Shown piece by piece: positions 38-3,518 of a stretch of DNA of 3,518 nucleotides (position 1 is the stretch's first letter; each line of letters begins with the position of its first letter). The position numbers and the translations under genes were made by a program. The stretch comes from Escherichia coli (GTDB lineage: Bacteria > Pseudomonadota > Gammaproteobacteria > Enterobacterales > Enterobacteriaceae). The DNA lies in assembly GCF_003334355.1 (NCBI RefSeq), contig NZ_QOWP01000070.1. One strand, 5' to 3'. The notes under the pieces are model-generated. The model saw only the letters and a program-made list of their open reading frames with translations, searched no databases and was not told where the DNA came from.

Positions 38-631
38 TCACAGATAAAACACTCTCCAGGAAACCCGGGGCGGTTCACGATGTTCAATAAAAGCATACCG
101 GACGACGGCATCGCCATAAATTTGTGCCTGGTGGACAATACGCGAGGCGCTAACCCTTGCGCGATCATAAATTTGTAGCAGGAGTTGATGGTCGGGCGTT
201 AAGCCTTGTGCGGCGACGATCATAGAATGTTGATCAATTAAGGCGTGACCAAATATTCTACATTGCCCGTAAACTAATGAGTCATGAATGGTGACACTGT
301 CACTTATATATGCACCCTGGCTGATTTCACTATTATCGATCCAGACATTATCCGTTGCGTGAACCTCTCCCCACAGCACGCTGGTGCCGGTGATACGCGT
401 ATTACCGGAAATCACCGTTCCGCCGAACGCAATAGCATTCTGGTCGTAAATCCAGCAATTTCCTTCCTGTGCTAACACCGTTTCGCGATCGATCCAGCCG
501 CCAGCGGTTCCTGCTATCACATCGTTAAAATCGCTAATGGCGATAATCTGCCGTAATAACACACTTTTTTTAGTGCCATCTTCCTGATAACTAAAGGCTC
601 GCTGTTCTTCACTTAGACGATATTTGCGCAT
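38..631 (-). CDS. ydcK: YdcK-like hexapeptide-repeat (left-handed beta-helix) acyl/acetyltransferase-family protein; 197-aa ORF, probably a frameshift-truncated copy of a longer gene (possible pseudogene)
   Basis: Minus-strand ORF from the track (ATG is the complement of 629-631, TGA the complement of 38-40). The translation is full of [LIV]-G-x-x-[STAV]-x type repeats ([46 protein letters not shown]). It is divergent from tehA, as ydcK is in E. coli. A second minus-strand frame stays open from about position 74 to the window edge and still looks repeat-like ([23 protein letters not shown]). Confidence 0.6.
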
Positions 632-754
632 AGCGTTTTCCCACAGGTGACTTACTATAACCGTAGCAAATTCTGCGGCTCTGGCTATGCTCGAGAAAAT
701 TCCATAAAATGCATTTCAAATATACTTTATAAATTAAACAAAATGAGTAAGAAG
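632..754. promoter_or_regulatory. Divergent intergenic region between ydcK and tehA; expected to hold both promoters. Only weak -10-like hexamers are visible (TATACT 721-726, TAAAAT 705-710) with no convincing -35 partner.
   Basis: 123-bp non-coding gap between two divergently oriented start codons. The box assignments are by eye only. Confidence 0.3.
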
Positions 755-1747
755 ATGCAGAGCGATAAAGTGCTCAATTTGCCGGCAGGCTACTTTGGTA
801 TTGTGTTGGGGACGATAGGGATGGGATTTGCCTGGCGCTATGCCAGCCAGGTTTGGCAGGTCAGCCACTGGTTAGGGGATGGGCTGGTGATTCTGGCGAT
901 GATCATCTGGGGATTATTAACTAGCGCATTTATTACCCGACTCATACGCTTTCCGCATAGCGTGCTGGCGGAAGTTCGCCATCCAGTGCTGAGCAGTTTT
1001 GTGAGTTTGTTTCCGGCAACGACGATGCTGGTGGCGATTGGTTTTGTTCCGTGGTTTCGCCCACTGGCGGTGTGCCTGTTCAGTTTTGGTGTCGTGGTTC
1101 AGTTGGCTTATGCCGCCTGGCAAACTGCGGGATTATGGCGCGGATCTCACCCTGAAGAAGCTACCACGCCTGGACTGTATCTGCCGACAGTTGCCAACAA
1201 CTTTATCAGCGCAATGGCCTGTGGTGCGTTGGGCTACACCGACGCCGGTCTGGTGTTTTTAGGCGCAGGCGTTTTCTCATGGCTAAGCCTTGAACCGGTG
1301 ATCTTGCAGCGTCTGCGCAGTTCGGGAGAATTACCCACGGCACTGCGGACATCACTCGGCATTCAGCTCGCTCCTGCGCTGGTGGCCTGTAGTGCCTGGC
1401 TGAGCGTCAACGGCGGCGAGGGTGACACGCTGGCGAAAATGCTTTTCGGTTATGGACTGCTGCAACTGCTGTTTATGCTACGTCTGATGCCATGGTATCT
1501 CTCCCAGCCATTTAATGCTTCATTCTGGAGTTTCTCGTTCGGCGTATCTGCACTGGCAACCACCGGTTTGCATCTGGGGAGTGGCAGCGATAATGGATTT
1601 TTCCATACGCTGGCGGTGCCGCTGTTTATCTTTACCAATTTTATTATTGCAATACTGCTCATCCGTACTTTTGCGCTTCTGATGCAGGGAAAATTGTTAG
1701 TCAGAACCGAGCGCGCCGTTTTAATGAAAGCAGAGGACAAAGAATGA
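755..1747 (+). CDS. tehA: Tellurite resistance protein TehA; TDT-family inner-membrane anion transporter, homologue of plant SLAC1 channels
   Basis: Long plus ORF (track 647..1747) encoding a strongly hydrophobic multi-pass membrane protein that I recognise as TehA. Start placed at ATG 755 ([19 protein letters not shown]...), which gives 330 aa and has a purine-rich GAGTAAGAAG just upstream. In-frame ATG 743 and GTG 647 are alternatives. The TGA stop at 1745-1747 overlaps the tehB ATG. Confidence 0.9.
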
Positions 1748-2337
1748 TCATTCGTGACGAAAACTATTTTACTGATAAATATGAATTAACCCGCACACAC
1801 TCTGAAGTACTGGAAGCGGTGAAAGTGGTTAAACCGGGTAAAACGCTGGATCTGGGCTGTGGCAATGGTCGTAACAGTCTTTACCTGGCAGCCAATGGTT
1901 ATGATGTTGACGCATGGGATAAAAATGCCATGAGTATCGCCAACGTCGAGCGCATTAAATCTATTGAAAATCTGGATAATTTACACACTCGGGTCGTTGA
2001 TCTGAATAACCTCACATTTGCTGGACAGTACGATTTTATTCTTTCGACTGTGGTGCTGATGTTCCTTGAGGCTAAAACCATCCCAGGGCTGATTGCCAAT
2101 ATGCAACGTTGCACGAAACCTGGCGGTTACAACCTGATTGTGGCGGCGATGGATAGCGCTGATTATCCATGTACCGTCGGCTTCCCGTTTGCCTTCAAAG
2201 AGAGAGAATTACGTCGATATTACGAAGGCTGGGAGATGGTGAAATACAATGAAGACGTCGGCGAGCTGCACCGCACCGACGCCAACGGTAATCGTATTAA
2301 ACTGCGTTTCGCCACGATGCTGGCACGTAAAAAATGA
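1744..2337 (+). CDS. tehB: Tellurite resistance protein TehB; class I SAM-dependent methyltransferase
   Basis: 197-aa ORF. SAM-binding motif I LDLGCGNG at 1846-1869 ([17 protein letters not shown]). The overall sequence matches what I know as E. coli TehB. Its start overlaps the tehA stop in ATGA (1744-1747), and AGAGGA lies about 10 nt upstream inside tehA. Confidence 0.95.
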
Positions 2338-2639: not shown

Positions 2640-3308
2640 ATGCGTACCACATCATTTGCGAAAGTTGCAGCTTTATGCGGCTTATTGGCTCTGTCTGGTT
2701 GTGCCTCTAAAATCACCCAGCCAGATAAATATTCTGGTTTTTTAAACAATTACTCTGATTTAAAAGAAACAACCTCGGCTACAGGTAAACCTGTTTTACG
2801 TTGGGTAGACCCGAGTTTTGATCAAAGCAAATATGACAGCATCGTCTGGAACCCAATCACTTATTATCCGGTACCGAAACCGTCGACCCAGGTAGGGCAG
2901 AAAGTTCTGGATAAAATTTTGAACTATACCAACACCGAAATGAAAGAAGCGATAGCGCAGCGTAAACCACTGGTTACCACCGCTGGGCCGCGTAGTCTGA
3001 TTTTCCGTGGGGCCATTACCGGTGTAGATACCAGCAAAGAAGGGCTGCAATTCTATGAAGTGGTTCCTGTTGCATTAGTGGTTGCGGGGACGCAAATGGC
3101 TACAGGCCACCGTACCATGGATACTCGCCTCTATTTTGAAGGTGAGCTGATTGATGCAGCGACTAATAAACCGGTTATCAAAGTCGTTCGTCAGGGCGAA
3201 GGTAAAGACCTGAATAACGAAAGTACGCCAATGGCTTTCGAAAATATTAAACAAGTTATTGATGACATGGCGACCGATGCCACCATGTTTGACGTTAACA
3301 AAAAGTAG
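2640..3308 (+). CDS. ydcL: Lipoprotein YdcL (DUF3313-type, function unknown); probable outer-membrane lipoprotein
   Basis: 222-aa ORF. The N-terminus MRTTSFAKVAALCGLLALSGCAS is a signal peptide with lipobox L-S-G-C (2691-2702); Ala at +2 predicts Lol sorting to the outer membrane. Good SD, TAG stop at 3306-3308. Confidence 0.9.
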   Translation: MRTTSFAKVAALCGLLALSGCASKITQPDKYSGFLNNYSDLKETTSATGKPVLRWVDPSFDQSKYDSIVWNPITYYPVPKPSTQVGQKVLDKILNYTNTEMKEAIAQRKPLVTTAGPRSLIFRGAITGVDTSKEGLQFYEVVPVALVVAGTQMATGHRTMDTRLYFEGELIDAATNKPVIKVVRQGEGKDLNNESTPMAFENIKQVIDDMATDATMFDVNKK

Positions 3309-3316
3309 TTCCAGAC

Positions 3317-3341
3317 GCGCCATCGTTAGATGGCGCTTTTT
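3317..3341 (+). terminator. Rho-independent terminator downstream of ydcL
   Basis: Perfect 8-bp stem GCGCCATC (3317-3324) with GATGGCGC (3329-3336), 4-nt loop GTTA, then TTTTT (3337-3341). It starts 9 nt after the ydcL stop. Confidence 0.6.
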
Positions 3342-3518
3342 ATCCGGTGCGCCGTAAAACCCCATCCTTCAGGGCGGGGATATAAGGCGCGGTTTTCCAC
3401 CTGACCAGGTGTTTGCTGTTGTTCAATGTATTGGCGGATGACGGATATTGGCGCACCTCCGCAGCTACTGGCAAAATAGCCAGGACTCCACAAAACGCCT
3501 TTGTAGTAATACCTGACT
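3326..3518 (-). CDS. tnpA: IS200/IS605-family transposase TnpA (Y1 HUH tyrosine transposase), C-terminal fragment; gene continues beyond the 3' edge of the window
   Basis: Minus-strand frame open from the window edge to TAA (complement of 3326-3328). It translates to VRYYYKGVLWSPGYFASSCGGAPISVIRQYIEQQQTPGQVENRALYPRPEGWGFTAHRIKSAI*. The stretch LWSPGYFASSCGGAPISVIRQYIEQQQ matches the conserved C-terminal helix of IS200/IS605 TnpA that carries the catalytic tyrosine, as I recall it from IS608 TnpA (not an aligned comparison). The ORF track omits it because no start codon lies within the window. Confidence 0.6.
   Translation of the reverse strand, partial: VRYYYKGVLWSPGYFASSCGGAPISVIRQYIEQQQTPGQVENRALYPRPEGWGFTAHRIKSAI
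3344..3518 (-). mobile_element. End of an IS200/IS605-family insertion sequence (IS609-like), partial; exact junction with the chromosome uncertain, roughly 3309-3349
   Basis: Contains the TnpA C-terminus and an adjacent imperfect palindrome. A TTTAT pentanucleotide sits at 3339-3343; this family inserts 3' of short AT-rich target motifs. An IS609 copy downstream of ydcL is known in E. coli K-12. Confidence 0.4.
3349..3390. repeat. Imperfect palindrome: 19-nt arms (3349-3367 and 3372-3390) with a 4-nt loop; candidate subterminal hairpin of the IS200/IS605-family element
   Basis: Pairing the arms gives 14 Watson-Crick pairs plus one G-T, with mismatches spread through the stem. IS200/IS605 ends carry imperfect subterminal hairpins of this kind, recognised by TnpA. 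It overlaps the last codons of tnpA. Confidence 0.4.

Follow-up and report, generated by a model that had tools for sequence, protein, structure and literature searches.

The tehA gene of Escherichia coli probably initiates for the most part at an ATG codon that is a newer, Escherichia-specific addition (position 755 of the DNA analyzed here), while the ancestral start codon of the gene (ATG 743) persists 12 nt upstream. More tentatively, Escherichia tehA may represent a start-codon migration that has gone part of the way: a start without a Shine-Dalgarno (SD) sequence, ATG 743, which is fixed at 15 nt from an NsrR operator and a −10 element and probably has a leader of only ~10 nt, would have been superseded by ATG 755 and may still give rise to a minor or condition-dependent 334-aa form.

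The window (the whole stretch of DNA that was analyzed, 3,518 nt) is a chromosomal E. coli segment comprising ydcK, tehA, tehB, ydcL (2640–3308), and the edge of IS609. Positions 500–1100 were present in 5413 of 5426 complete E. coli genomes with 95–100% identity, and positions 600–800 are the MG1655 sequence without any difference. The features referred to below are the following, in window coordinates:

38–631, minus strand: 5′ part of ydcK, with the start ATG at 631, divergent from tehA.
632–742, no strand: divergent intergenic control region between ydcK and tehA, from the RefSeq annotation mapped onto the window.
647–649, plus strand: in-frame GTG opening the mechanical 366-aa ORF (647–1747); not a credible start.
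705–710, plus strand: TAAAAT, alternative putative −10-like hexamer, above 3 bits in 60% of the sequences; the transcription start site (TSS) would be near 717.
706–728, plus strand: NsrR operator, an 11-1-11 inverted repeat (AAAATGCATTT-C-AAATATACTTT), from a published tehA site and a half-site match.
721–726, plus strand: TATACT, best-conserved putative −10-like hexamer, from sigma-70 scoring; the TSS would be near 733.
743–745, plus strand: ATG orthologous to the tehA start of all other Enterobacteriaceae, invariant in 78 of 78 species loci.
746–754, plus strand: codons for Ser-Lys-Lys, the putatively ancestral N-terminal tail, which with G745 make up the purine-rich GAGTAAGAAG (745–754) immediately 5′ of ATG 755.
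755–757, plus strand: annotated start of tehA; this ATG is Escherichia-specific (AAG to ATG) and dominates initiation in vitro.
755–1747, plus strand: annotated tehA coding sequence, a TDT/SLAC1-family transporter of 330 aa, with the stop codon at 1745–1747.
1744–2337, plus strand: tehB, whose ATG overlaps the tehA stop codon (ATGA).

Several features of the surroundings were recorded as well. Because the end of an IS3-family element occupies positions 1–77, which are thus not ydcK, the ydcK gene is disrupted in the source strain. The terminal repeat of this element (TGAACCGCCCCGGG... on the minus strand) ends at 77, with the junction at 77/78, and the 326-aa ydcK of reference genomes is represented here by a 197-aa ORF that consists of ~184 ydcK codons and a read-through into the insertion sequence. 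A motif, A(A/C)CGTAGCAAA, at ~659–670 in the ydcK-tehA intergenic region is kept in nearly all genera; on the other strand, this is 26–39 nt upstream of the start of ydcK, and the motif may serve as a promoter element of that gene or as a site for a regulator. The ATGA overlap of tehA and tehB (1744–1747) is the usual arrangement for translational coupling. Just past ydcL, a strong terminator-like hairpin (3317–3346; GCGCCATC-GTTA-GATGGCGC, then TTTTT) is followed by the IS609 edge and a decayed IS200/IS605 tnpA (yncK) that is annotated in MG1655 (3326–3518).

The three candidate codons GTG 647, ATG 743 and ATG 755 share one reading frame and the same stop codon, and they open proteins of 366, 334 (MSKKMQSDK...), and 330 aa, respectively. 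The initial annotation had placed the three codons at these positions and in frame, and the coordinates and the ORF list agree with it. Three in-frame start-type codons within ~110 nt of A/T-rich DNA are statistically unremarkable. RefSeq/PGAP and the MG1655 annotation both place the tehA start at 755 (window 755–1747 corresponds to NC_000913.3 1500573–1501565, with ATG 743 at 1500561 and GTG 647 at 1500465), and the same protein has been deposited at all three lengths: at least 1000 contigs carry the 330-aa version, 81 the 334-aa version and 6 the 366-aa version.

That the 330-aa product is TehA, as had been recognized from its sequence, was confirmed by the RefSeq call at 755–1747 and by a match to the NCBIfam equivalog NF008032 with 570.5 bits (cut-off 342), which covers residues 37–363 of the 366-aa ORF and whose model position 1 is Met-755. 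TIGR00816 matched with 374 bits. The equivalog, a match to the Haemophilus influenzae TehA of known structure (PDB 3M71; E = 2.4e-61), and the tehA-tehB synteny place the protein in the TehA/TDT family of tellurite-resistance/dicarboxylate transporters (PF03595). The H. influenzae protein, a bacterial SLAC1 homologue, belongs to the same family with ~40% identity. Its alignment begins at residue 5 of both this protein and the 330-aa form, so that equal tails precede the LP(A/T)GYFG motif; the upstream DNA of the two species is unalignable and is therefore uninformative as to which ATG is used in E. coli.

We found no indication that the choice of the start alters the N-terminal topology, as had been supposed. 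Kyte-Doolittle averages were zero or below throughout residues 1–36 of the 366-aa ORF, with the first hydrophobic segment at approximately residues 40–48, so that neither the 36-aa extension nor the MSKK tail contains a hydrophobic segment. The latter adds two positive charges only and aligns before TM1, and the tail of the H. influenzae protein is as short as that of the 330-aa form. Predictions of topology and function are thus unchanged by the choice between ATG 743 and ATG 755, and this choice is of small practical weight: the two candidates differ by Met-Ser-Lys-Lys, in a tail that varies among genera and is absent from the crystallized Haemophilus homologue.

An alignment of the N-termini of TehA orthologues, which had been proposed as a check of ATG 755, favored ATG 743 instead. 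Proteins of close orthologues with 82–89% identity (from Citrobacter, Leclercia, Enterobacter, Salmonella arizonae and others) have their start 12 residues ahead of the invariant LPAGY motif, which is the position of ATG 743, and carry K, T, Q, P or other residues where E. coli has Met-755. Since protein starts are choices of gene callers, the DNA of 80 orthologous tehA loci was fetched and read, 78 of which, representing species of the Enterobacteriaceae, were analyzable. The equivalent of ATG 743 was found in every one of these loci, located 12 codons before the LP motif in 63 loci, 11 codons in 11 loci and 10 codons in 4 loci. It is the sole ATG, GTG or TTG between the upstream stop codon and the motif in 64 of the 78 loci; an in-frame stop lies zero to four codons upstream in 44 loci, and a stop codon directly precedes the ATG in 10. 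Among 74 distinct sequences the columns of this ATG are 100% conserved, with neighboring columns at 40–95%. An ATG at the position of 755, by comparison, occurred in only six of the 78 loci, which were the five sampled Escherichia lineages (E. coli-like, E. albertii, E. whittamii, Escherichia sp. E1V33 and E69) and Enterobacter sp. ENT03. Elsewhere the codon at this position is AAG (15 loci), AAC (10 loci), AAA (8 loci) or another one. ATG 743 was retained in every Escherichia lineage examined, a pattern compatible with its still being used. Of the three codons, it is the evolutionarily conserved start; an equivalent of GTG 647 as a start was found in two of the 78 loci. In the simplest history compatible with these alignments, ATG 743 would be the ancestral, family-wide start and ATG 755 a genus-specific addition. 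In the Enterobacter sp. ENT03 locus, a second in-frame ATG has arisen independently, also at −8 (MCKQMVSKK...), which illustrates that tandem starts can arise repeatedly in the Lys-rich tail, where AAG is one step away from ATG. One caveat applies to database comparisons: because NF008032 is based on E. coli and begins at Met-755, and because the annotations of other genera use a start that is not orthologous to it, N-termini of TehA are not comparable across genera.

Within E. coli, the exact sequence across both ATGs was found in 5278 of 5413 genomes. A difference somewhere in positions 722–781 was present in 156 genomes and a change within 755–780 in 102 of them, 63 of which carry the same Ser-to-Asn replacement (AGC to AAC) at position 762, in codon 3 of the 330-aa form. 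This replacement is consistent with weak constraint on the N-terminal tail. A change in ATG 743 is possible in no more than ~54 genomes (1%; absolute ceiling 156 genomes, ~3%) and one in ATG 755 in no more than 39 (0.7%), and the putatively ancestral AAG at 755 was found in none of the E. coli genomes searched. Both ATGs are thus effectively fixed, and therefore the population data do not discriminate between them.

The initial annotation had preferred ATG 755 on account of the purine-rich sequence in front of it and had discounted ATG 743 for its A/T-rich upstream region without an SD. Predicted duplexes with the 3′ end of the 16S rRNA did not sustain the first argument. The duplex energy was −2.2 kcal/mol for ATG 755, +1.3 kcal/mol for ATG 743, and −1.2 kcal/mol for GTG 647, compared to −3.8 kcal/mol as the mean of all window positions, −4.3 kcal/mol for ydcL, and −5.8 kcal/mol for tehB, which has the best SD in the window. 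Upstream of ATG 755 only GAG pairs, and the duplex is thus weaker than the window mean and those of both tehB and ydcL; UAAGAAG resembles UAAGGAG, yet it abuts the AUG directly. The stable 16S pairing 5–10 nt upstream that characterizes a canonical SD-led start was not found, and GAGTAAGAAG is at best a marginal SD for ATG 755. The description of ATG 743 as SD-less was correct, as shown by its positive duplex energy, but it is no ground for excluding this codon: in every other genus, the orthologues with this ATG as their sole start also have an A/T-rich, SD-less leader (...TTAAACAAA-ATG or ...TTAAAATTA-ATG), and hence the absence of an SD cannot count against it. A difference in mRNA accessibility was also considered as a cause of a preference for ATG 755 and was rejected. 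When modeled on the template used for in vitro profiling (see below) and on transcripts with 5′ ends at 717 or 733, the predicted mean probability of being unpaired was 0.58–0.66 for ATG 743 and 0.48–0.54 for ATG 755, so that the differences are small and ATG 755 is not favored.

Upstream of both ATGs, positions 706–728 (AAAATGCATTTCAAATATACTTT) read, on the opposite strand, exactly as the NsrR site published for tehA in strain CFT073 (PMC5320621 Table 4). The site is an 11-1-11 repeat that matches AANATGCATTT, with an exact half-site at 706–716. NsrR control of tehA is disputed, as ChIP-chip and repressor titration gave positive results while negative ones came from reporter fusions, from ChIP-seq in CFT073, and from qRT-PCR in Salmonella. 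The operator lies 15 nt upstream of ATG 743, and this spacing is kept without insertions or deletions across ~75 Enterobacteriaceae species, as is the 40-nt stretch from the operator up to ATG 743 when aligned across genera. Overlapping exact-match counts differ in a way that implies ~100 E. coli genomes with a single-nucleotide polymorphism at ~720–727, a region within the right NsrR half-site and the TATACT hexamer.

A generic sigma-70 consensus scan of positions 500–900 returned no promoter. Using a position-specific, conservation-weighted sigma-70 score over 78 distinct orthologous upstream sequences, we identified TATACT (−22 to −17 relative to ATG 743) as the best candidate, with a mean of +3.0 bits, 72% of the sequences above 3 bits, and a T at −17 that is 99% conserved. 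The NsrR operator contains both this hexamer and the alternative TAAAAT, an arrangement to be expected if the repressor acts by occluding the promoter. With a TSS near either 733 or 717, as these hexamers predict, both ATGs would be on the mRNA and GTG 647 would be excluded from it. A TSS near 733 would leave a leader of ~10 nt before AUG 743 and of ~22 nt before AUG 755, and the shortness of the former is a plausible candidate reason for a preference for ATG 755. No native tehA TSS was found in full-text literature searches, and the portion of the Cappable-seq supplements that was searched contained no tehA entry and no coordinates starting with 14984, 14985, 15004 or 15005. A leaderless mRNA for ATG 743 was also considered and finds no support in the position of the best-conserved −10-like hexamer: at the leaderless-compatible position (−13 to −8), a −10-like hexamer scored well in 26% of the orthologues, compared to 72% at −22 to −17.

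Profiling with initiation inhibitors had been suggested as a means to locate the start, and published in vitro data of this kind are available for tehA. They come from INRI-seq (Hör et al. 2022, PMC9825163), in which ribosomes of a reconstituted system are profiled with retapamulin on a synthetic E. coli transcriptome. The tehA template there consists of GGG followed by window positions 725–907, matches the window sequence exactly, and includes both ATGs. Peaks are assigned by footprint 3′ ends located 12–18 nt downstream of a start (PMC9825163), and the resulting assignment windows are separate for the two codons (755–761 for ATG 743 and 767–773 for ATG 755). In Table S2 of that study, a tehA peak is reported at the annotated TIS 1500573 with 270–420 CPM in five of five replicates (PMC9825163). 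Table S3, an uncut list of non-annotated sites that carry at least 10% of the reads of a template, has no entry for tehA (b1428 is followed by b1434; PMC9825163), a result with which minor use of ATG 743 below this threshold is compatible. For neighboring genes, upstream alternative sites are given (ydcK at −15 and trg at −20; PMC9825163). The template, a T7 transcript, has an artificial 5′ end (GGG) and just 18 native nt before AUG 743, which has to be considered when its initiation pattern is interpreted. An initiation site was thus detected in vitro for ATG 755 and for neither ATG 743 nor GTG 647, and the single peak gives no sign of dual N-terminal proteoforms. On the K-12 sequence, in vitro initiation is predominantly at AUG 755. 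The in vivo Ribo-RET value (Meydan 2019) for tehA is 0, as reproduced in Table S2 of the INRI-seq study (PMC9825163); tehA is not listed in the TetRP, ribosome-signature, and TRAINSPOTTER supplements, and no N-terminomics data on TehA were found in the literature supplements searched. The designation of ATG 755 as the start therefore keeps the backing of the reference annotation and of the in vitro peak, while the reasons originally given for it are weak and the orthologues point to ATG 743. More generally, an SD-like motif or a recognized protein offers weak grounds for choosing a start, and at tehA it is conservation and the in vitro data that disagree.

Taken together, positions 647–757 comprise the divergent ydcK-tehA control region and then the first tehA codons. 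ATG 743 would be the ancestral, SD-less start with an A/U-rich leader, located 15 nt downstream of the NsrR operator and a probable −10 element. ATG 755 would have been created four codons downstream when AAG became ATG through one transversion in the Escherichia ancestor, and on the E. coli sequence the ribosomes of the reconstituted system start overwhelmingly at this codon. As this is where in vitro initiation is concentrated, the 330-aa protein is probably the main product in E. coli; a minor 334-aa (MSKK-) proteoform is possible. Two other readings retain both ATGs as candidates. According to one of them, ATG 743 is still the main start in vivo, Met-755 is internal, and the 330-aa annotation is four codons short. 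The universal presence of ATG 743, its retention in all Escherichia lineages, the competence of the E. coli ribosome context that is suggested by relatives using an SD-less ATG at this place, the marginal SD of ATG 755, and the 334-aa call on 81 public contigs all speak for this possibility. We nevertheless consider it unlikely, as the INRI-seq peak is assignable to ATG 755 alone and nothing passed the filter for ATG 743 on a template that holds both codons, and as the predicted TSS near 733 would leave the upstream AUG with a leader of ~10 nt. According to the other, both ATGs are used appreciably, yielding 334- and 330-aa proteoforms that differ by a Met-Ser-Lys-Lys cytoplasmic tail. Both codons are fixed in Escherichia, the A-rich region around them is unstructured and their predicted accessibility is similar, and tandem in-frame starts are known in E. 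coli (PMC9825163). Since no second peak with at least 10% of the reads appeared in vitro, and since the four residues show no sign of importance (the tail is short in H. influenzae and highly variable among genera), appreciable use of both starts seems quite improbable.

A start at GTG 647, which would lengthen TehA to 366 aa through a soluble N-terminal extension of 36 residues, is hardly credible, even though the frame is open from this codon, six public contigs carry the 366-aa call and the extension resembles that of some relatives. This similarity of amino acids across genera arises because the operator and promoter DNA is conserved and seen in translation. GTG 647 has no SD. It falls within the control region, 16 nt away from the start codon of the divergent ydcK, and precedes the NsrR operator as well as the two −10-like candidates; as a start it is confined to two Escherichia lineages. 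In three of the five non-reference Escherichia lineages (loci L004, L007 and L008), a stop codon in this frame, located 28 codons ahead of the LP motif, interrupts the extension, and in-frame stops also occur in nearly all other genera. Moreover, homology to the family models and to the TehA of known structure does not reach upstream of residue 37 in the 366-aa ORF. The rejection of this codon in the initial annotation is therefore upheld, and the conclusion that GTG 647 is a chance in-frame codon in the control region, which is not used as a start, is firmly supported.

The ambiguity of the tehA start is real yet ordinary, in a well-known gene, and it can be compared with other systems. In-frame ATGs four codons apart are likewise found among the E. 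coli starts mapped with retapamulin (Meydan 2019 Ribo-RET; INRI-seq, PMC9825163), as exemplified by uidR, whose real start is four codons downstream of the annotated one (INRI-seq, PMC9825163), and in these cases, as at tehA, it takes initiation profiling to tell the two starts apart. With its A-rich, SD-poor context, tehA also resembles the non-canonical INRI-seq sites, for which such a context was reported to be typical (PMC9825163). It differs from the retapamulin-mapped cases in that detection was at the annotated site, the upstream ATG is conserved but went undetected, and neither codon has an in vivo signal. In comparison to the NsrR-repressed promoters of hmp, ytfE and ygbA, tehA shares the 11-1-11 consensus repeat over the likely −10 element, whereas its control by NsrR is disputed. 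Another parallel is the turnover of start codons, in which a new, lineage-specific ATG arises near the one conserved in orthologues. Consistent with such a process, tehA shows one AAG-to-ATG change in one genus and a new start 12 nt downstream, with the core of the protein unchanged; unlike a completed turnover, the old ATG has been kept and the replacement was demonstrated in vitro alone. As the old ATG was not lost, the shift of the tehA start, if real, is incomplete. If it holds true in vivo, tehA would be a tidy example of start-codon turnover on an SD-less mRNA with a short leader.
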